61,724 nt of DNA from contig WJJZ01000004.1 in assembly GCA_014729395.1 (NCBI GenBank), forward strand, positions 1 through 61,724. Direction: 5' to 3'. A program made the position numbers and the translations under genes. Of this stretch, positions 5,865 to 60,061 are shown in pieces (the first letter of the stretch is position 1; each line of letters opens with the position of its first letter). The DNA is from Candidatus Magasanikiibacteriota bacterium (GTDB lineage: Bacteria > Patescibacteriota > Patescibacteriia > Magasanikbacterales > UBA922). A model generated the notes under the pieces. The model had not been told where the DNA came from and did not search any database. It was given only the letters and a program-made list of their open reading frames with translations.

Positions 5865-7919
5865 ATGAATAAAGTTAAAAAAGCAAACAGCGCAAGGTCA
5901 AAGGTCAGGTGGGGTATAATTGGCATACTCGCGCTTTTTATTATAGCCGGTTTTTTTGATGTGCCAACCTGGGCAAACAAAGCGATTGATACGGTTAATA
6001 ATACCGCATATTTAGGTATACCCAGAATTCCCGAAAAGGGTTTTAATCTTGGGTTGGATTTACAGGGCGGCGCTCATCTTATTTACCAGGCGGATGTCAG
6101 TGGAATAAAAGAAAGTGAAAAAGGTGCTGCAGTAGAAGGGGTTAGAGATGTGATTGAAAGAAGAGTGAACGCAATCGGTGTCTCTGAACCTAATGTACAA
6201 ACCACCAAAGTGGGAAACGATTATCGAGTTATTGTGGAATTACCCGGGGTAACCGATATAAACGAAGCTATTAACATGATTGGCGAGACTCCAATTTTGG
6301 AATTTAAAGAAGAAAATGATGAGCCGCAAAGAGAGCTAACTGAAGGAGAGAAGCAGCAATTGAGTGATAATAATTTACAAGCAGCTCAAAAAGCTACTGA
6401 GGCTTTGGATAAGATTAAAGAAGGGGCTGAATTTGGTGAGATTGCAAAAGAGTATTCAGAAGATGAATTAAGTAAAAATAATGGCGGTTATTTGGGTTAT
6501 ATTGACAGATCTTCGCCTTATCCCGCGCTTTATTCATGGGCCGAAAATGCTCAAGAGGGGGATTTGGGAGAATTGGTTCAGTCAAGCGAGGGTTTAAACA
6601 TACTTAAAAGAGGAGCTGAACGAGACGGTCAGGTGGAAGTGGAAGCCAGTCATATTTTAATTTGTTATCAAGGAACACAATTTTGTCCTGATAACGAATT
6701 GACTAAAGACGAAGCGTTTTTAAAAGCTCAGTCACTTTTCCATGAAGCAAATGCGGAAAATTTTAGCGATTTGGCAAAAGAAAATTCCACAGATCCCGGG
6801 ACAAAAGATGTTGGTGGTGATCTGGGTTGGATAAGTAAAGGTCTACTTGTTACCGAAGTTGATGAGCCGCTTTTTTCATCTGAAGTTGGTCAAATAATCG
6901 GTCCGGTTGAATCTCCTTTCGGTTATCATATTTTATATAAAAAGAATCAAAGAGTAGGTAAAGAATATGAAATTTGGCGAATACTGGTAAAGACCATGAC
7001 AGCGGCAGACATTTTACCTCCTGATGATCCTTGGAAAAATACAGGATTATCCGGTAAGCAGCTTGAAAAAGCGGAAGTGGTTTCAGATCCACAAACCGGA
7101 GCTATACAGGTTTCTCTGTTGTTTGACGAAGAAGGAAAAGATTTATTTAAAGAACTTACAGAAAGAAATATCAGCAAACCGATAGCAATATTTCTAGATG
7201 GAGCACCGATTAGTATTCCAACCGTAAATAGTGTAATCCCGGATGGTAGAGCTGTAATTCAGGGTAATTTTAATCTAAGTGAGGCACAATTGTTGGCACA
7301 GAGATTAAATGCCGGTGCTCTGCCGGTTCCGGTTGAGCTGATTGCTCAGCAGAGTATTGGTGCCAGCTTGGGTGCCGAATCATTACAAAAAAGTTTGAAA
7401 GCCGGTATTGTCGGTTTGATCTTAGTAATGCTTTTCATGCTGATTTATTATAGATTGCCCGGTTTGGTGTCTGTTTTTTCTCTTACTTTGTATATCACTT
7501 TGACACTGGCCATTTTCAAATTGATCGGCGTTACTTTGACATTGGCCGGAATCGCAGGATTTATTTTGTCAATCGGTATGGCGGTTGATGCAAATGTTCT
7601 GATTTTTGAGAGATTAAAAGAAGAGCTTAAAGAAGGTAAAAGTCTAAAGGCCGCGGTTGAAGAAGGATTTTTACGAGCATGGACGTCTATCAGGGATGGG
7701 AATATTTCCACGCTGATTACTTGTGTACTGTTAATTTGGTTTGGTTCCAGTTTTGTGCAAGGTTTTGCCGTAACTTTGGCAATTGGTATTTTAATCAGTA
7801 TGTTTTCGGCTATTACAGTGACGCGTGTCATCTTGAGATTTGTGGTACCTTGGTTCAAACCGGAAGGCGGTTTCATGTTTTTGGGCAGTAAAAGAGTTGA
7901 GAACAAAAAGACTGAGTAA
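5865..7919 (+). CDS. secD: protein translocase subunit SecD with inserted PpiC/parvulin-type PPIase region
   Basis: SecD signatures: 'GLDLQGGAHLIYQ', 'ETPILEF', 'IAIFLDGAPISIPTV' and C-terminal TM helices containing 'GMAVDANVLIFERLKEE'. Residues ~153-385 carry parvulin motifs: 'GGYLGYI', 'ASHILI', 'GGDLGWI', 'PFGYHILY'. Confidence 0.9.
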   Translation: MNKVKKANSARSKVRWGIIGILALFIIAGFFDVPTWANKAIDTVNNTAYLGIPRIPEKGFNLGLDLQGGAHLIYQADVSGIKESEKGAAVEGVRDVIERRVNAIGVSEPNVQTTKVGNDYRVIVELPGVTDINEAINMIGETPILEFKEENDEPQRELTEGEKQQLSDNNLQAAQKATEALDKIKEGAEFGEIAKEYSEDELSKNNGGYLGYIDRSSPYPALYSWAENAQEGDLGELVQSSEGLNILKRGAERDGQVEVEASHILICYQGTQFCPDNELTKDEAFLKAQSLFHEANAENFSDLAKENSTDPGTKDVGGDLGWISKGLLVTEVDEPLFSSEVGQIIGPVESPFGYHILYKKNQRVGKEYEIWRILVKTMTAADILPPDDPWKNTGLSGKQLEKAEVVSDPQTGAIQVSLLFDEEGKDLFKELTERNISKPIAIFLDGAPISIPTVNSVIPDGRAVIQGNFNLSEAQLLAQRLNAGALPVPVELIAQQSIGASLGAESLQKSLKAGIVGLILVMLFMLIYYRLPGLVSVFSLTLYITLTLAIFKLIGVTLTLAGIAGFILSIGMAVDANVLIFERLKEELKEGKSLKAAVEEGFLRAWTSIRDGNISTLITCVLLIWFGSSFVQGFAVTLAIGILISMFSAITVTRVILRFVVPWFKPEGGFMFLGSKRVENKKTE

Positions 7920-8892: not shown

Positions 8893-8913
8893 TTTTCTGG
8901 TATAATAAACACA

Positions 8914-8978
8914 ATCATAAATCATAAATCCTAATTCATAAAATATAAATTTATGATTTTAGACTTTAGATTTTAGAC
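8914..8978. repeat. tandem heptamer arrays (ATCATAA-type x5, TTTAGAC-type x3)
   Basis: In 7-nt register: ATCATAA ATCATAA ATCCTAA TTCATAA AATATAA (8914-8948), then TTTAGAC TTTAGAT TTTAGAC (8958-8978). AATCATAAAT and ATTTATGATT can pair. Confidence 0.8.
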
Positions 8979-8986
8979 TTATTTTT

Positions 8987-11768: not shown

Positions 11769-11911
11769 AATGAGCTCCTCCGTTTGCTTGTTAAATTGTA
11801 AAGGTCAGGTTCACGAAAAATAACACAAAAAGTCATTTAAGTCAACCGGGTCATGAGTAAAATTAGGATTTGCTTTTTTGTGTTGTTTTTTGGTAATCTA
11901 CCATAACAGTT

Positions 11912-11998
11912 TACGAGTCACGATACACGATTCATGCCTGCCTTTGGCAGGGAACACGATGCAAATTTTGTCTCGTGATACGTGTATCTTGAATCGTA
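11912..11998. repeat. heptamer-word region with central GC hairpin upstream of dnaG
   Basis: TACGAGT CACGATA CACGATT ... GTGATAC GTGTATC TTGAATC in 7-nt register. Central hairpin CCTGCC-TTTG-GCAGG. Confidence 0.6.
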
Positions 11999-12079
11999 TT
12001 TTTATTAATTCCCTTGTCCGACACCCGGCTAATCAAAAACCCATCTTCGCTTCGCTGCGTTGGGCAAGCAAACTAATAT

Positions 12080-25397: not shown

Positions 25398-25688
25398 ATG
25401 GATAACCAAGGTGACAGACAAATGTTCGAGGTTGACATAGAATGCGGAGAATGCGGTACAAAAATTACCGAACTCCCATTTGAGCCATCCGGAGATCGAC
25501 CTGTATATTGTACAGCTTGTCTGAAAGAAAGAAGAAACAATAGAGGTGGCGGCCGTGGTGAACGAAAAATGTTTGATGTGGATATTGAGTGTGCAGATTG
25601 CGGTACTCATATCTCACAACTACCATTTCAACCACGTGGAGACGGTCCAATCTATTGCTTTGAATGCAACAAAAAGCGTAGAGGTTAA
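25398..25688 (+). CDS. tandem CxxC-x18-CxxC zinc-ribbon protein (two copies)
   Basis: 'MFEVDIECGECGTKITELPFEPSGDRPVYCTACLKERR' is repeated as 'MFDVDIECADCGTHISQLPFQPRGDGPIYCFECNKKRR'. It resembles the 'CxxC-x17-CxxC' family as I recall it. Confidence 0.8.
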   Translation: MDNQGDRQMFEVDIECGECGTKITELPFEPSGDRPVYCTACLKERRNNRGGGRGERKMFDVDIECADCGTHISQLPFQPRGDGPIYCFECNKKRRG

Positions 25689-25765
25689 TTCTCTCACATT
25701 TTAAAGAAATCCCTATTTATAGGGGTTTCTTGATTTTTAAGAAGGTTTTAGGGATAATACAGTGA

Positions 25766-25836
25766 ATTGGAGACTGGAGATTAGTGACTGGAGACTATTT
25801 GACTATAAAATCAATCTCTAGTCTCCAATCACCAGT
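25766..25836. repeat. inverted heptamer array (ATTGGAG/ACTGGAG vs CTCCAAT/CACCAGT), probable terminator
   Basis: ATTGGAG ACTGGAG ATTAGTG ACTGGAG (25766-25793) and CTCTAGT CTCCAAT CACCAGT (25816-25836), followed by TTTTTATTTTTT. Confidence 0.8.
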
Positions 25837-25869
25837 TTTTATTTTTTATCTAAATATTCTACTGTTCTT

Positions 25870-26991
25870 ATGAAGAATAGCAAAGAAAGAGTTCTAGTTG
25901 CCATGTCCGGCGGGGTGGATTCATCCGTGGCGGCTTTACTATTGAAAAAAGAAGGTTATGATGTGGCTGGAGCATTCATGATAAACTACGAAGAAGAGAG
26001 TGGGAGTTCGTTTACAGGGAGCAGCGTAGCGGAGTCATGTTGGCGCGGGGATTACCGGGACGCTATTCGGGTGGCAGCTAAACTGGAAATTCCACTTATA
26101 AAATTGGACTTTAGAAAAGAATACAAGAAGTTTGTTTTGGATTATATGTTTTCTGAATATAAAACCGGTAGAACGCCAAATCCGGATGTTTTGTGTAATA
26201 AATTTATTAAATTCGGTGCGTGGTTGAAGAAGGCGAGGAAGCTCGGCTTCGAGAAGTTGGCCACTGGACATTATGCACAGCTTCGAAAAAGTAAGACTGG
26301 AGATTGGAGACTGGAGACTGGGAAAGATAAAGAAAAAGACCAGACTTATTTTTTGCACCAGTTAAATCAGGAGCAGTTAAGTCATGCTCTATTTCCAATT
26401 GGTGAATATACCAAAAAAGAAGTTAGAAATTTGGCTAAAAAATTCAATCTTGCAACAGCAGAAAAAGAAGAAAGTATGGGGATTTGTTTTGTGGGTGAAG
26501 TGCCGATGAAAGATTTTTTGATGCAGGAAATTAAATCAAAGCCTGGAAAGATTGTAACTTCAGATGCTGAGGTGATAGGTGAACATGAGGGATTAGCTTT
26601 TTATACTGTTGGCCAGCGCCATATAGGAGTTCACAGTTCACAGCCAACAGTTCACAGTCGGCAAGCGATAAATGACAGTAGACCTTTGTATGTCGTTGAT
26701 AAAAGGTTGGATACTAATGAACTCGTTGTTGGTTTTAAAGATGATCCTTTGTTATTTAAGCAAAAAATTGAAGTTAGTGAAGTAAACTGGATCGCTGGAC
26801 AGCCACCCAAATTTCCCCTAAAATGTAAAGTAAGACTTAGACATAGACAAACTCCTCAAAGAGCGGTGATCAGTGAGCGGGGAACAAAAATTTTGATAGA
26901 ATTTAAAAATGCACAACGAGCGGTAACCCCCGGGCAGTTTGCGGTTTTTTATAAAGGAGATGAATGTTTGGGGGGTGGAGTGATTTTGTAA
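25870..26991 (+). CDS. mnmA: tRNA 2-thiouridine(34) synthase MnmA
   Basis: PP-loop 'VAMSGGVDSSVAA', plus 'PNPDVLCN', 'ATGHYA', 'KDQTYFL' and 'ESMGICF'. Confidence 0.95.
   Translation: MKNSKERVLVAMSGGVDSSVAALLLKKEGYDVAGAFMINYEEESGSSFTGSSVAESCWRGDYRDAIRVAAKLEIPLIKLDFRKEYKKFVLDYMFSEYKTGRTPNPDVLCNKFIKFGAWLKKARKLGFEKLATGHYAQLRKSKTGDWRLETGKDKEKDQTYFLHQLNQEQLSHALFPIGEYTKKEVRNLAKKFNLATAEKEESMGICFVGEVPMKDFLMQEIKSKPGKIVTSDAEVIGEHEGLAFYTVGQRHIGVHSSQPTVHSRQAINDSRPLYVVDKRLDTNELVVGFKDDPLLFKQKIEVSEVNWIAGQPPKFPLKCKVRLRHRQTPQRAVISERGTKILIEFKNAQRAVTPGQFAVFYKGDECLGGGVIL
26296..26323. repeat. ACTGGAG-family heptamer array (4 units) inside mnmA
   Basis: ACTGGAG ATTGGAG ACTGGAG ACTGGGA, translated in frame as part of 'KTGDWRLETGK'. 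Confidence 0.85.
26630..26657. repeat. TTCACAG-family heptamer array (4 units) inside mnmA
   Basis: TTCACAG TTCACAG CCAACAG TTCACAG, translated in frame as part of 'VHSSQPTVHS'. Confidence 0.85.
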
Positions 26992-41930: not shown

Positions 41931-41944
41931 GAATTTTAAATTTA

Positions 41945-42020
41945 AAATTTTGAATTTCGAATCAATTTTAAATTTATTAATTAAAAAATTAACAATTCAA
42001 TCAAAATTTAAAATTCGAAA
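41945..42020. repeat. AT-rich inverted-repeat element, copy 1 (shares both arms with 58043-58177)
   Basis: AAATTTTGAATTT (41945-41957) and AATTCAATCAAAATT (41994-42008) recur identically at 58056-58068 and 58142-58156. Confidence 0.7.
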
Positions 42021-42023
42021 TTA

Positions 42024-42950
42024 TTAATTTAAAATGTTGCTGGCAATTTTTTGATAACCACGCAAAAATCCTTCGACATCCATAGCTTTTTTACCTTCAA
42101 GTTGAAGTTTTAGCACCTCAATTGCGTTTTTCGCACATCCTATATACATTTTACCATTTTCTAGCACCACCTTGCCAGCTTCTATTTGTAGATCAACCGG
42201 TTTGATTTTTATCAACTTCAATCGCTTATTCTTCCAGCTTGTCCAAATACCGGGCCAAGGATTTAGACCACGGTATCGGTTATAAATATCAGTAGCCGAT
42301 TTTGTCCAGTCAATTTTGCCATCATCTCTGGTAAACTGGCCGCAAGTGGAGGCTTGTAAATTATCTTGTGGAATGGGCTCTAATTCACCGCTTATATACT
42401 TTGGGATAGCCTCCAGCAAAGCTATTTTGCCGATCTCAGCCAGTTTTTTGTCTAAATCAATATAAGTGTCATGTTCACCTATTTTGATTGGTTTTTGTAG
42501 GATTATCGGTCCGGTATCAAGCCCCTCATCCATTTTCATAATAGTAACTCCGGTTTCAGTTTCGCCATTTATCAAAGCTGATTGGATAGGGGAGGCGCCA
42601 CGGTATTTTGGTAGTAGTGAAGTGTGGACGTTTAAAAATCCGTGAGGTGAATCATCTAATAGTTTTTTCGGAATAATTATTCCATATTGAGCTACTATAG
42701 CGATGTGGTAGTCAGATATTGGTAGCTGGTAAATTCTTAATGATGCGGGTTGAATTATTGGGAGATCGTATTTTTCAGCCAAAATTTTTACAGGAGATTT
42801 TTTTAGTTCTTTTTTGCGTCCTACGGGTTTGTCCGGCTGGGTGATTACCAGCTCAACTGTAATAAAAGGACTGCTGATAAGTCCTTCGAGTATAGTGGCA
42901 GCGAATTCATGCGTGCCGAAGAAAATAGCCCTAATTTTTCTATCATTCAT
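42024..42950 (-). CDS. fmt: methionyl-tRNA formyltransferase
   Basis: 'IFFGT.EFA...L..L', 'HGFLNVHTSLLPKYRGASPIQ.A...G...TGVTIM.M...LDTG'. I trimmed the start to ATG 42950 because the track ORF extends through the heptamer array. Confidence 0.93.
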   Translation of the reverse strand: MNDRKIRAIFFGTHEFAATILEGLISSPFITVELVITQPDKPVGRKKELKKSPVKILAEKYDLPIIQPASLRIYQLPISDYHIAIVAQYGIIIPKKLLDDSPHGFLNVHTSLLPKYRGASPIQSALINGETETGVTIMKMDEGLDTGPIILQKPIKIGEHDTYIDLDKKLAEIGKIALLEAIPKYISGELEPIPQDNLQASTCGQFTRDDGKIDWTKSATDIYNRYRGLNPWPGIWTSWKNKRLKLIKIKPVDLQIEAGKVVLENGKMYIGCAKNAIEVLKLQLEGKKAMDVEGFLRGYQKIASNILN

Positions 42951-42952
42951 AA

Positions 42953-43026
42953 AGTAGATGATAAGTGATAAGTGATAAGTGATAGCTTTTCTTAGTAAAA
43001 CTATCACTTATCATCTATCATTTATT
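42953..43026. repeat. inverted heptamer array (GATAAGT x4 vs ACTTATC/ATCTATC) between def and fmt
   Basis: GATAAGT GATAAGT GATAAGT GATAGCT (42960-42987), 18-nt loop, then ACTTATC ATCTATC ATTTATT (43006-43026). Confidence 0.85.
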
Positions 43027-43082
43027 ATTTAAAATATCTCCAAAATCAATTTTTTTATCTCGTCTCCTGGGTCAGACACTTA

Positions 43083-50189: not shown

Positions 50190-50894
50190 ATGAAAAAAGG
50201 AAAATTATATATTGTTGCTACGCCAATCGGAAATTTGGACGACATCACAATTCGTGCCATAGACACAATGAAAAGTGTTGATTTTGTAGCTTGCGAAGAT
50301 ACCAGAGTAACCAGAAAAATTTTGAATCATTACAAAATAGAAACACCAACGATTAGTTACCATCAACATAGCGGTGAGTCAAAGATGTTGGAAATTAGAG
50401 ATTTGTTGCTTTCCGGCAAAAATATCGCATTAGTAACGGATGCCGGTACTCCCGGAATTAGTGATCCGGGGAATAAGTTAATCGAGTTCATAGTTCATAG
50501 TTCACAGTTCTCAGACATTGTTCCTGTTCCGGGAGCTTCGGCAGTTACGGCAGCTTTGTCAGTATCAGGATTTCCTACAGACAAGTTTGTATTTATGGGG
50601 TTCCCGCCACATAAAAAAAGAAGAAAACAATTTTTTCAAGAAATTGCAGACAATAAATACACAACGGTTTTTTACGAATCATCGCATAGAATAAAAAAAG
50701 CTCTGCAAAATTTGGCAGAGGTGTTGGTTGAGGAAAGACAGTCCGCCTCCGCTAAAGCTTCGGCGAGACAAGTGTGTGTATGTCGTGAACTTACAAAAAA
50801 ATTTGAGAGCATTTACAGGGGTTCTGTGTCCGAGGTTGTAGGTATGGATATTACAGAAAAAGGGGAGTTCGTAGTTATAGTACGTAGTCAATAA
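50190..50894 (+). CDS. rsmI: 16S rRNA (cytidine1402-2'-O)-methyltransferase
   Basis: 'LYIVATPIGNL.DIT.RA......VD.VACEDTR.T..IL', 'DAGTPGISDPG', 'PGASA'. Confidence 0.9.
   Translation: MKKGKLYIVATPIGNLDDITIRAIDTMKSVDFVACEDTRVTRKILNHYKIETPTISYHQHSGESKMLEIRDLLLSGKNIALVTDAGTPGISDPGNKLIEFIVHSSQFSDIVPVPGASAVTAALSVSGFPTDKFVFMGFPPHKKRRKQFFQEIADNKYTTVFYESSHRIKKALQNLAEVLVEERQSASAKASARQVCVCRELTKKFESIYRGSVSEVVGMDITEKGEFVVIVRSQ
50487..50514. repeat. TTCACAG-family heptamer array (4 units) inside rsmI
   Basis: TTCATAG TTCATAG TTCACAG TTCTCAG, translated in frame as 'FIVHSSQFS'. Confidence 0.85.
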
Positions 50895-56721: not shown

Positions 56722-56812
56722 AAAAATAATCTTCATTCTTAATTTTTCAATCCGTTAAGACTCAAGATTGAAAAATAAAGATTAGAGATTAAATTTGAAA
56801 AAAGCTTAATTT

Positions 56813-57601
56813 ATGGCGAGTGAAATTCACATTCCGACTTTGGCACCAGAGGTTCTGTTTCAAATAGGACCGGTGAATGTTACCAACACAATGATAAACG
56901 CATGGATTGCGATAATAATATTTCTTATTTTGGGGATTTTTATAAAAAAAAGAATAAATTTAAGCCCGGGTAAACTACAGAACTATTCTGAATATTTTTT
57001 GGATAAGTTATTGGGTTATTTTGACCAGGTTACGGGAGATCGTAAAAAAACAATTGGCTTTTTACCGATTGTCGGATCGATCTTCTTTTTTATTTTATTA
57101 TCAAATTGGCTTGGTCTGTTGCCGGGCACCGGGAGTATAATGGTAGGACACAGTATGTTGCTTAGACCGGCCAACACAGATTTGAACCTTACGGTTGCTA
57201 TGGCACTGGTTGCGGTTGTTAGTTCACATATATTTGGTTTTGTTGCGATCGGTTTTTTTACTCATCTGGGAAAATTTATTCAAATAGGCAATATTTTAAA
57301 GAGTTTCAAAAAAGGCCCAATGGCTATTTTTACAGCTATAATAGAATTTGGTGTTGGTTTACTGGAAATAATTTCTGAAATTGCCAAAGTCTTATCACTG
57401 TCTTTACGTCTGTTTGGGAATATATTTGCCGGTGAAGTATTGATTTCAGTAATAAGCGCTCTTGTTGCAGCTCTTGCACCAGCTCCATTTATGCTTTTGG
57501 AAGTTTTGGTCGGTATTATCCAGGCCAGTGTGTTTGCAATGCTTACATTGGTTTATTTAACGGTTGCTACGAGTAAACCGCATGGGGCGGAAGAACATTA
57601 A
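56813..57601 (+). CDS. atpB: F0 ATP synthase subunit a
   Basis: 'LSLSLRLFGNIFAGEVL' (conserved Arg helix), polytopic. Confidence 0.93.
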   Translation: MASEIHIPTLAPEVLFQIGPVNVTNTMINAWIAIIIFLILGIFIKKRINLSPGKLQNYSEYFLDKLLGYFDQVTGDRKKTIGFLPIVGSIFFFILLSNWLGLLPGTGSIMVGHSMLLRPANTDLNLTVAMALVAVVSSHIFGFVAIGFFTHLGKFIQIGNILKSFKKGPMAIFTAIIEFGVGLLEIISEIAKVLSLSLRLFGNIFAGEVLISVISALVAALAPAPFMLLEVLVGIIQASVFAMLTLVYLTVATSKPHGAEEH

Positions 57602-57674
57602 CAACAGTTCACAGTGATCAGTTCACAGTTAGCAGGATTATATCCTCTGTTGGTTGTGAACTGAAAACTGCGAA
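57601..57674. repeat. inverted heptamer array (TTCACAG family) between atpB and atpE
   Basis: ACAACAG TTCACAG TGATCAG TTCACAG TTAGCAG (57601-57635), 11-nt loop, then CTGTTGG TTGTGAA CTGAAAA CTGCGAA (57647-57674). It begins on the last base of the atpB TAA. Confidence 0.85.
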
Positions 57675-57687
57675 TGGACATTATTAA

Positions 57688-57987
<300 letters not shown>

Positions 57988-58042
57988 GTTGATCAAAGAA
58001 GGGCAATGAAAAAATATTGTCCTTCCTGATGAGTTTATCTTT

Positions 58043-58177
58043 AATTTTGGATTTCAAATTTTGAATTTTGAGTAAATTTCAAATGATTTAATTTTAAACT
58101 TGTCCTGAAAGTTTTGAATGATTAATTCATTAGTAATTAAAAATTCAATCAAAATTCATAATTCAAAATTCATAATT
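58043..58177. repeat. AT-rich inverted heptamer element, copy 2 (AATTTTG vs CAAAATT/CATAATT)
   Basis: AATTTTG GATTTCA AATTTTG AATTTTG (58043-58070) and CAAAATT CATAATT CAAAATT CATAATT (58150-58177). Confidence 0.75.
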
Positions 58178-58190
58178 AAATTATAATAAT

Positions 58191-59209: not shown

Positions 59210-60061
59210 ATGAGGGAAACTAAGGAAGGAAATGTTAAACCACTACAGATTGAATTAAATAATATAAATATTGATGGTCTTGTACCAGAAGGTTTTATAA
59301 ATAATTTTCAAAAAGAAAAAAAAGATATTATAAAAAATGAAGAAGAGAGAATTGCTAGAGTAAAAGAATATAACCCAGATGAGGAGATTGATTATCGAAA
59401 AAGAATGGAATTAGCTATTCGTGAATGGGTAGATAATAAATTTAAATCTATTTACTATAAAAGATATAAAGATTTGATTTCTAAATATAGGCCTGATTTT
59501 GAACCTTACAGTTTTAATAAGTTTATTAGATCGGGTGCATTGGGGAGATTTAAATTTATTGACAAACTTGGTATAAAACCTGGTTTATATGTACTTAAAT
59601 CTTTACCTGAGGAGAATTCATATAGAAAATACAGAATTGATGGTATTACACCAAATTGTTATTTAAGATTAGAAGGAAAGCGTGGTCATTATTTCCCATC
59701 TGGCGATTTAAAAATTGTGGAAGAAGAGGATTTGACTAATTTTAATATTAAAGAGGTTGGGGAAGATGATAAAAATTTAAAAGATTCAAAAAAGAAAGAA
59801 GAGATTCCAAAAATAAGAAGAATGACCGGAGATGAACACAAAGATGTGCAAGCGAATAGTGGGGAAGATGTCGAGGAGGATGTTCTTGAGCCAGTAGAAA
59901 AAATGAAACAAGTCGTAAAAAAAATAAAAACAAGAGAGCAGGAAAGAATCAAGAAAGAACGAAGTGAATTTAATAAAGAAGCTGTAGAAGTTTATCAGAT
60001 GGCAAGAAGGACAAGTAAGCATGATTTTATTAAATGGTTTATTGATAATTATATTAAATAG
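59210..60061 (+). CDS. hypothetical charged protein inserted between atpH and atpA
   Basis: 283-aa ORF, very A+T-rich and K/E-rich. I recognise no family. Confidence 0.55.
   Translation: MRETKEGNVKPLQIELNNINIDGLVPEGFINNFQKEKKDIIKNEEERIARVKEYNPDEEIDYRKRMELAIREWVDNKFKSIYYKRYKDLISKYRPDFEPYSFNKFIRSGALGRFKFIDKLGIKPGLYVLKSLPEENSYRKYRIDGITPNCYLRLEGKRGHYFPSGDLKIVEEEDLTNFNIKEVGEDDKNLKDSKKKEEIPKIRRMTGDEHKDVQANSGEDVEEDVLEPVEKMKQVVKKIKTREQERIKKERSEFNKEAVEVYQMARRTSKHDFIKWFIDNYIK

Follow-up and report, generated by a model that had tools for sequence, protein, structure and literature searches.

A stretch of 61,724 nt (positions 1-61,724, forward strand) of contig WJJZ01000004.1 (assembly GCA_014729395.1) from a Candidatus Magasanikiibacteriota bacterium, hereafter referred to as the window, contains secA, secDF, dnaG, rpoD, a ribosomal protein cluster, def-fmt, priA, metG, tatD and the atp operon, and raises the question of why many of its intergenic spacers consist of short words, mostly of 7 nt, repeated in tandem and followed by an inverted set of the same words. 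A preliminary description took the atpB-atpE spacer as its exemplar, and its transcription of positions 57601-57674 in 7-nt register agreed with the sequence letter for letter. The 5' arm of this exemplar begins on the final A of the TAA stop codon (57599-57601) of the atpB open reading frame (ORF; Pfam ATP-synt_A). The long imperfect hairpin proposed there was borne out by folding, in that an 80-nt RNA reached -32 kcal/mol against a shuffle mean of -16.8 (z = -4.83, with 0 of 200 shuffles equal) and the use of DNA parameters gave z = -3.0. The elements are of a known kind, namely the STRR-like heptamer repeat hairpins already known in cyanobacteria and Xanthomonas, in a new host group, and what they add is a large variety of words within a genome, a period that ranges from 7 to 9 nt and copies that lie in frame in fixed loops of core proteins. 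We read them as STRR-like repeat palindromes that arose at the DNA level by slippage combined with arm-to-arm template switching and are tolerated where constraint is low, a reading to which we give an even chance of being right.

The signal of period 7 was evident throughout the spacers of the window, where the pooled lag-7 identity was 0.356, above the values for lags 6 (0.299) and 8 (0.320), with an echo of 0.332 at lag 14; the corresponding lag-7 value in coding sequence was 0.273, and the coding sequence showed a period-3 pattern alone. The excess over shuffled controls, which the preliminary description had proposed as a check, was obtained in a sliding test that returned 16 period-7 segments in the window versus 1.7 in dinucleotide shuffles, and Tandem Repeats Finder independently identified period-7 arrays at 8913, 8958, 25768, 41932, 42959, 43002, 57604, 58043 and 58149. 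Each of the other sites that had been listed (8914-8978, 11912-11998, 25766-25836, 41945-42020, 42953-43026 and 58043-58177) proved to be an array pair folding into a long imperfect hairpin, as summarized in Table 1. The accompanying statement that such arrays fill most long spacers was somewhat overstated, as they are carried by six of the ten spacers of at least 140 nt and by 8 of 27 spacers of at least 40 nt. Among these eight array-bearing spacers, that at 11769-12079 carries its arrays weakly, and four of the eight hairpins are located inside operons (atpI-atpB, atpB-atpE, atpE-atpF and def-fmt). The units, 7-9 nt in length, follow one another head to tail without spacers and are thus not those of a CRISPR array.

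Table 1. Heptamer arrays and hairpins of the window, and arrays inside genes of related loci (positions of related loci are preceded by the locus name)
Feature	Position	Strand	Description
Inverted arrays 3' of secF	8913..8980	+	AATCATA ×5, then TTTATGATTTTAGAC-type units; imperfect complementarity
Hairpin 5' of dnaG	11912..11998	+	ACGAT-type heptamers; apex nests GC palindrome CCTGCCTTTGGCAGG (11937-11951)
Hairpin between zinc-finger gene (25398-25688) and mnmA	25765..25837	+	ATTGGAG/ACTGGAG ×4 versus TCTCCAAT/CACCAGT; T-run after
Single-arm array in mnmA	26289..26327	+	ACTGGAG ATTGGAG ACTGGAG ACTGGGA; encodes KTGDWRLETGK; word same as in upstream spacer
Single-arm array in mnmA	26628..26658	+	AGTTCAC ×3 plus variant; homologous to AGAGTTC array of L163
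AT-rich inverted arrays, fmt to O-antigen-ligase-like gene	41933..42035	-	TGAATTT versus TCAAAAT
Near-perfect hairpin, def-fmt	42955..43031	-	(TGATAAG)×4 versus (CTTATCA)-type; -35 kcal/mol; overlaps over-extended fmt GTG start
Single-arm array in rsmI	50480..50519	+	TTCATAG TTCATAG TTCACAG TTCTCAG; variable loop
Inverted arrays, atpI-atpB	56727..56791	+	AATCTTC-type versus AAGATTG-type; absent from the preliminary description; words match orthologous L006 spacer
Exemplar 5' arm, atpB-atpE	57601..57635	+	Five heptamers: ACAACAG TTCACAG TGATCAG TTCACAG TTAGCAG
Exemplar loop	57636..57646	+	11 nt, GATTATATCCT
Exemplar 3' arm	57647..57674	+	Four heptamers: CTGTTGG TTGTGAA CTGAAAA CTGCGAA
Long hairpin, atpE-atpF	58040..58180	+	AATTTTG-type arm 58043-58073, CAAAATT/CATAATT arm 58144-58182; absent in L127
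atpG arrays, five genomes	L003 3419, L006 12658, L019 12170, L020 9353, L051 13221		
tatD arrays, four genomes	L007 6072, L008 3740, L024 6405, L026 6397		
metG arrays, four genomes	L012 4518, L014 3355, L030 2568, L052 5375		
rsmI arrays, three genomes	window 50480, L006 2795, L039 4197		

The window AtpA was 80-90% identical to those of Candidatus Magasanikbacteria and other Patescibacteria metagenome-assembled genomes (MAGs), and the best matches were Candidatus Magasanikbacteria MAGs, in agreement with the earlier impression of a genome resembling those of the Candidate Phyla Radiation (CPR). The window was considered together with 80 related loci (L001-L080), the pooled set amounting to 1.27 Mb, i.e., 135 kb of spacer and 1.14 Mb of coding sequence. 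In this set, 137 period-7 arrays were detected in spacers (10.1 per 10 kb of spacer) versus 63 in coding sequence (0.55 per 10 kb), so that they are about 18-fold denser in spacers. Arrays of period 8 were also elevated in the spacers (58 arrays, 4.3 per 10 kb), and those of periods 5 (31, 2.3 per 10 kb), 6 (24, 1.8), 9 (20, 1.5) and 10 (6, 0.4) were low. The density was uneven by lineage, several loci having none at all and others, including loci labelled Moranbacteria and Dojkabacteria, having 5-10 per 10 kb, and an Escherichia coli control of 50 kb around the atp operon, examined with identical criteria, gave no array of period 7-10.

Inversion was likewise a general property, since 44% of the spacer arrays had a reverse-complement array no more than 120 nt away, whereas control counts with the reversed or the complemented word gave 9% and 17%, respectively; in 17 of 34 adjacent array pairs the consensus words were reverse-complementary with at most one mismatch. 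The words themselves were quite diverse. The 200 period-7 arrays represented 113 distinct canonical words with a mean G+C content of 23%, and thus no conserved palindrome of 20-40 nt dispersed among the loci, as in repetitive extragenic palindromic (REP) sequences, was found. Exact word sharing between non-adjacent arrays was 3.9% within a locus versus 0.87% between loci; the window, for instance, has TTCACAG in the atpB-atpE spacer, mnmA and rsmI, and ACTGGAG both in the leader of mnmA and, 500 nt further downstream, within the gene itself. Such sharing is consistent with occasional ectopic copying within a genome. Neither TTCACAG nor ACTGGAG was enriched outside the arrays of the window.

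The synteny rsmI - tatD - atpI-B-E-F-H - atpA is conserved among the related loci, and comparison of the orthologous spacers revealed a fast turnover. The atpB-atpE spacer is composed of two modules, a hairpin directly after the stop codon and then a conserved atpE stem-loop leader. The word and the period of the hairpin change by genome, the period being 7 in L008 (AATAAGG), L009 (TTGAAGA), L014, L017 and L021, 8 in L006, L011 and L022, and 9 in L004; some genomes have no hairpin and a spacer of 27-39 nt. In the atpE-atpF spacer, a GC hairpin stands at a fixed position after atpE and a repeat-built hairpin is added in some genomes only, and the atpI-atpB spacer, which is 2-20 nt long in many genomes, is enlarged by repeat hairpins in others, with the words and their order being identical in the window and L006. 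Look-ups of proteins identical to AtpB and AtpE returned nothing, and a metagenome scan yielded L127 as the sole close relative of the window (AtpB 94% identical); its atpB-atpE hairpin is shorter, with only the inner part in common, and the 140-nt atpE-atpF hairpin is missing. When L018 was compared with the 95%-identical L016, 73 nt of a repeat hairpin were found to be deleted between AATA microhomologies. The L016 hairpin is flanked by an 8-bp direct repeat, GTTAATAG, which was the one suggestive target-site duplication among the loci compared; nothing systematic and no clean empty site was observed. The arrays are thus gained, remodelled and lost fast, some persist, and the arms remain complementary as the words change.

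Two other structures in the same operon deserve separate mention. The stem-loop leader 5' of atpE (window 57690-57745, within the 5' untranslated region) is orthologous in L004, L006, L007, L017, L021, L023-L027, L051, L061, L063 and L127, and consists of an outer helix GCTAGCC...GGCTCTGG and an inner helix CGAGG-TTAAAA-N-CCTCG, for which the compensatory variants CGAAG/CTTCG, CGACT/AGTCG and CGACG/CGTCG were found elsewhere. It is nearly identical in L127, though the adjoining repeat hairpin differs. No Rfam family matched this leader; at gathering thresholds Rfam returned nothing in the window, the atp spacers gave chance-level miRNA and PrrF matches alone, and no tRNA or tmRNA was found in the window. 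Directly after the atpE stop codon, at 57997-58027, lies the GC hairpin GAAGGGCAAT...ATTGTCCTTC, surrounded by an outer AT helix and conserved in position in most Magasanikbacteria loci, which may be a candidate processing or attenuation point after the c-subunit gene.

Arrays were also found inside housekeeping genes, including two in mnmA and one in rsmI of the window that had escaped the preliminary description. With respect to the best-matching MnmA of solved structure, the mnmA array at 26628-26658 adds 8 residues; the rsmI array at 50480-50519 is a 2-residue insertion. The patescibacterial MnmA orthologues have indel hot spots exactly at the array positions of the window. In L161 and L162, the first hot spot holds an in-frame heptamer hairpin that is complete with both arms (in L162, GAAACTN ×4, a loop and GTTTCCA ×3, giving the peptide ...NLKLETGG...SFQFPVSSF...), to arm 1 of which the window array at 26289-26327 is homologous, and L163 carries arrays of related words at the same three hot spots. 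In AtpG, TatD, RsmI and MetG, arrays of different words occupy shared variable loop columns, always in frame, and atpG of L051 carries both hairpin arms, (CGACGAA)×4 ... (TCGTCGA)×3.

The suggestion that the arrays are terminators did not withstand examination. At least six T residues within the next 10 nt followed 6% of the array hairpins, as compared with 5% in the antisense control, and a consensus scan of the atp spacers detected no excess of terminator-like or promoter-like sites. The stems were AT-rich and without U-tract enrichment, unlike those of intrinsic terminators, with the single exception of the hairpin at 25765-25837 and its T-run. Single mismatches counted within Watson-Crick stems of co-directional spacers comprised, on the sense strand, 21 G·T versus 28 A·C in array spacers (n = 49 only), and 94 G·T versus 55 A·C in spacers without arrays (Fisher p = 0.019 for the difference), the latter being the bias expected of RNA structures. 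Sense and antisense folding energies were almost equal in array spacers (a marginal difference, p = 0.066). Among spacers of at least 60 nt in the 81 sequences (the window and L001-L080), arrays of period 7-9 were present in 104 of 440 co-directional, 13 of 69 divergent and 4 of 53 convergent ones (Fisher p = 0.008), and this convergent depletion runs contrary to the expectation for a 3'-end element. Complete hairpins within genes, as described above, likewise spoke against termination. The lack of U-tracts, the lack of a sense-strand G·U bias and the convergent depletion thus indicated that the arrays are not terminators and that selection at the RNA level is not evident. The arrays take up nearly the whole of their spacers, the median distance to the flanking ORF being 4-5 nt on either side; an apparent abutment of the hairpins on the upstream stop codon was rejected as an effect of outer pairs in the minimum free energy structures, the array blocks lying equally near both spacer ends.

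Among the origins suggested earlier, slippage products best fitted the evidence. In the reading that we favour, weakly constrained DNA would be converted to a tandemly repeated short word, usually of 7 and sometimes of 8 or 9 nt, often accompanied by an inverted copy of the array. Replication slippage would let short units grow and shrink, heptamers being a size class known as favoured in prokaryotes, and intrastrand template switching or arm-to-arm conversion (quasipalindrome "correction") would make the inverted arm and keep the arms alike. Microhomology-mediated deletion would take the arrays out again, occasional ectopic copying would carry a word to another site of the same genome, and arrays would persist only under low constraint, i.e., in spacers and in variable protein loops where only in-frame versions last. 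The structure of the arrays, their excess, their spread among taxa, their turnover, the copies in frame and the missing terminator and G·U signatures are observations; it is the slippage steps, the template-switch steps and the neutrality that we infer. The array sequence itself is without specific signal; the transcribed spacer arrays fold into stem-loops of 20-35 bp and can at most serve as generic structural elements (exonuclease blocks, cistron insulation). When assessed as simple sequence repeats (SSRs) of the Mrazek class, the arrays showed the excess over shuffles, and the informative pair L016/L018 showed the 73-nt microhomology deletion, not a unit-sized indel.

Several observations weigh against this reading. 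A 7-nt change in copy number was not seen directly, the genomes compared being too distant from each other at the arrays. As a single 7-nt slip is a frameshift, the in-gene arrays would need multi-unit or templated events, and those in metG are partly without net length change. The convergent depletion is not predicted by neutral filler; it may stem from constraint by genuine terminators that act in both directions, or from a requirement for negative supercoiling. The mismatch comparison drew on 49 mismatches in array spacers, and the exemplar itself, when its 3' arm is paired with its 5' arm, contains four G·U pairs on the + strand. Finally, a post-atpB hairpin is present in most Magasanikbacteria although its sequence shifts, a retention that could reflect selection for structure.

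The last two points bear on the alternative that the arrays are selected RNA structures, which we hold to be a tentative possibility. A stem after a cistron would block 3' exonucleases, provide an RNase III-type site or uncouple translation, the hairpins would set subunit ratios in the atp and def-fmt operons, and repeats would be the quickest mutational route to a stem. The operon-internal position of half of the window hairpins, the sense-strand G·U pairs of the exemplar, the retention of the post-atpB hairpin through sequence turnover in many Magasanikbacteria and the complementarity kept between arms while words change would all be accommodated, and the same role, in transcript stability or translational coupling, has been proposed for cyanobacterial STRR hairpins, although none has been proven (PMC2670836). 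However, the array spacers lack the sense-strand G·U bias seen in other spacers of the same genomes, and relatives manage without the hairpin, as seen in the shortest atpB-atpE spacers, in the often minimal atpI-atpB spacers and in atpE-atpF of L127. Moreover, arrays are as frequent in divergent as in co-directional spacers and rare in convergent ones, and complete hairpins exist within the coding regions of mnmA and atpG.

A dedicated DNA transaction, in which an enzyme of the host or a mobile element (HUH/RAYT-like, integrase-like or reverse-transcriptase-based) would recognise hairpin or cruciform DNA and write whole arrays in one step, the arrays being non-autonomous mobile DNA, appears distinctly unlikely. 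Such an activity would supply the multi-unit events needed for in-frame arrays without net length change, and the reuse of TTCACAG and ACTGGAG within a genome, with word sharing 4.5-fold higher within than between loci, would be in line with it, as would the direct repeat GTTAATAG around the L016 hairpin and the mobile-looking small GC-rich palindromes that occupy the same sites and nest in hairpin apices. On the other side, the 113 words of the 200 arrays include neither a conserved sequence family nor a terminal motif, there is no clean empty site with a single copy of the putative target duplication, and periods 7, 8 and 9 vary at orthologous sites. A scan of 66 window ORFs detected no transposase, Y1/RAYT, integrase or reverse transcriptase domain; together with the absence of a dispersed word family, this disfavoured the earlier idea of a REP/RAYT substrate. 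The arrays also differ from miniature inverted-repeat transposable elements, having no sequence family, no clean empty site and, apart from the possible flanking repeat of L016, no target-site duplication.

The GC-rich palindrome CCTGCC(TGCC)...(GGCA)GGCAGG, for which the chance expectation in the window is zero, was found in 16 of 160 Patescibacteria loci of several lineages, at window 11937-11951, L006 2235, L007 8369, L014 5943/11499, L051 732/9470, L057 2687, L061 2174, L129 3966/4312/4402 and others. In the window, L007 and L057 it caps a repeat hairpin, and at L129 4402 it lies next to repeat-like sequence. Other small GC-rich palindromes (GTCATTCCCGCG.../GTCATCCCGAGCG..., CTCCCC...GGGGAG) are present or absent between genomes of 92-95% identity (L016/L018, L061/L069) and are apparently translated in frame in the MnmA orthologues P0053, P0024 and P0084 (e.g., HCHPERPKGAEGSL), which recalls the Rickettsia palindromic elements.

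If the arrays were sets of sites bound by a regulator with sequence specificity for DNA or RNA, as proposed for the TAACTGA repeats of Beggiatoaceae, this would explain why arrays go with spacers that contain a gene start (co-directional and divergent, not convergent) and why some stand directly 5' of starts; nevertheless, the words vary both among the sites of a given genome and among orthologous sites, show no enrichment as isolated copies and also occur within genes, which makes this explanation very improbable. Although short-read assemblers can collapse or mis-join tandem repeats, an assembly or sequencing artefact of low-complexity metagenome-bin DNA is hardly credible at all and was rejected, since the same architecture recurs, as the preliminary description had asked of a genuine feature, in dozens of assemblies made independently by separate projects with different assemblers (NCBI, JGI, ENA and Logan), at orthologous positions and with reading frames preserved in conserved genes. 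A telomerase-like or primer-reiteration origin, which would require one word per genome, helical phasing, since a period of 7 bp does not match the helical repeat, and arrays of promoters, given no excess of promoter-like sites, were discarded.

Three features of the window outside this argument may be recorded. The longest fmt ORF (42024-43007, - strand) begins at a GTG within the def-fmt hairpin, and Formyl_trans_N starts at residue 26, so that the true fmt start is probably downstream of the hairpin, near 42940. In the atp operon, a 283-residue ORF without Pfam match (59210-60061) lies between atpH (short OSCP domain, 133 aa) and atpA, and a tblastn search with it against L001-L080 gave nothing at E ≤ 1e-5. 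SecD (5865-7919) contains an inserted PPIC-type peptidyl-prolyl isomerase domain at residues about 246-360.

The STRR heptamer sequences of heterocystous cyanobacteria, reportedly described by Mazel in 1990, comprise the STRR1-3 words CCCCAGT, TTGGTCA and CAACAGT. The 7-bp STRR repeats of filamentous cyanobacteria give rise to hairpins between genes of an operon, e.g., hupS-hupL (PMC2670836), and the likeness drawn in the preliminary description is accordingly apt; the title of Jackman and Mulligan (1995), as cited in the same paper, refers to "highly variable but structured intergenic regions" of closely related cyanobacteria. Like the window arrays, STRR are 7-nt tandem units in spacers, including those within operons, are capable of hairpin formation, and vary in sequence between close relatives while the structure is kept. 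Unlike STRR, the arrays of Patescibacteria use many unrelated AT-rich words rather than a few named ones (words resembling CAACAGT/TCACAGT do occur, at few sites only), have periods of 8 and 9 at orthologous sites, and are frequently copied in frame into housekeeping proteins. The hosts differ too, being not filamentous cyanobacteria but Patescibacteria, with streamlined genomes of the ~1-Mb class.

The view that STRR are the only analogue was nevertheless overstated, as heptanucleotide SSRs are widespread in prokaryotes and inverted heptamer pairs are found in Xanthomonas and Nostoc. According to the summaries of Mrazek, Guo and Shah (2007) in PMC4679880 and PMC4692102, heptanucleotide repeats are the most abundant class of long SSRs in most prokaryotic genomes, and polymerase slippage was proposed as their cause. 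As described there, these SSRs share with the present arrays the predominance of period 7 over neighbouring periods and the mostly intergenic location; that survey is older than the CPR genomes, its summaries do not treat inverted pairs, and the present arrays reach about 10 per 10 kb of spacer. The GGGAATC / GGGGA(T/C)T intergenic heptamer arrays of Xanthomonas and Nostoc, some of them inverted pairs (PMC4692102), also vary in length and sequence between close species at the same loci, but employ one G-rich, quadruplex-prone word per genome, in contrast to the diverse AT-rich words here. Tandem repeats of TAACTGA occur in Beggiatoaceae, Cyanobacteria and Bacteroidetes, in spacers and occasionally in ORFs, and array indels between Cyanothece strains are "mostly in 7 nt increments" (PMC4679880); unlike the present arrays, they consist of a single word, almost always direct and just 5' of start codons. 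REP/BIME/REPIN sequences, a conserved family spread by RAYT, resemble the arrays as intergenic hairpin-forming doublets, often in operons, with a discussed role in mRNA stabilisation (PMC3116915). They differ in that the arrays have no conserved sequence and the window no RAYT. Rickettsia palindromic elements are a sequence family of 100-150 bp that, like the arrays, is tolerated in frame within protein genes and adds variable or disordered loops. The Borg tandem repeats (PMC9879509) likewise add such loops in frame, evolve quickly and form locally; in the abstract of that paper they are presented as tandem direct repeats, with inversion unmentioned. As the preliminary description had supposed, our literature search for heptamer-array hairpins in CPR bacteria found none, and a 2026 survey reported that CPR phyla top all phyla in inverted-repeat density, with the cause not dissected (PMC13155455).

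The arrays link CPR bacteria to the old and unsolved cyanobacterial STRR problem, and, as the phenomenon is independent of heterocysts, large genomes and a single word, a general DNA-metabolic cause is favoured. Although the genomes of CPR/Patescibacteria are regarded as extremely streamlined, a sizeable part of the little non-coding DNA that they have, together with several loops of core proteins, consists of fast-churning heptamer palindromes, which will mislead predictors of terminators, small RNAs and repeats, inflate the inverted-repeat statistics of CPR and, as hypervariable sites, are usable for strain typing. The in-frame copies in loops of AtpG, MnmA, RsmI, TatD and MetG provide a natural experiment on how repeats enter proteins. 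It is conceivable, though we think it rather unlikely, that a lineage-wide process of Patescibacteria writes whole arrays and their inverted copies in single events, or else that the arrays are selected operon-internal elements of RNA processing or stability with freely churning sequence. Single-event writing may be due to an unrecognised enzyme, or else to template switching directed by hairpins or templated repair from ectopic sites, which would be frequent if a hairpin nuclease or exonuclease were missing. If true, such writing would extend into essential genes and would be a leading source of spacer structure and of variable loops in the proteins of the smallest bacterial genomes.

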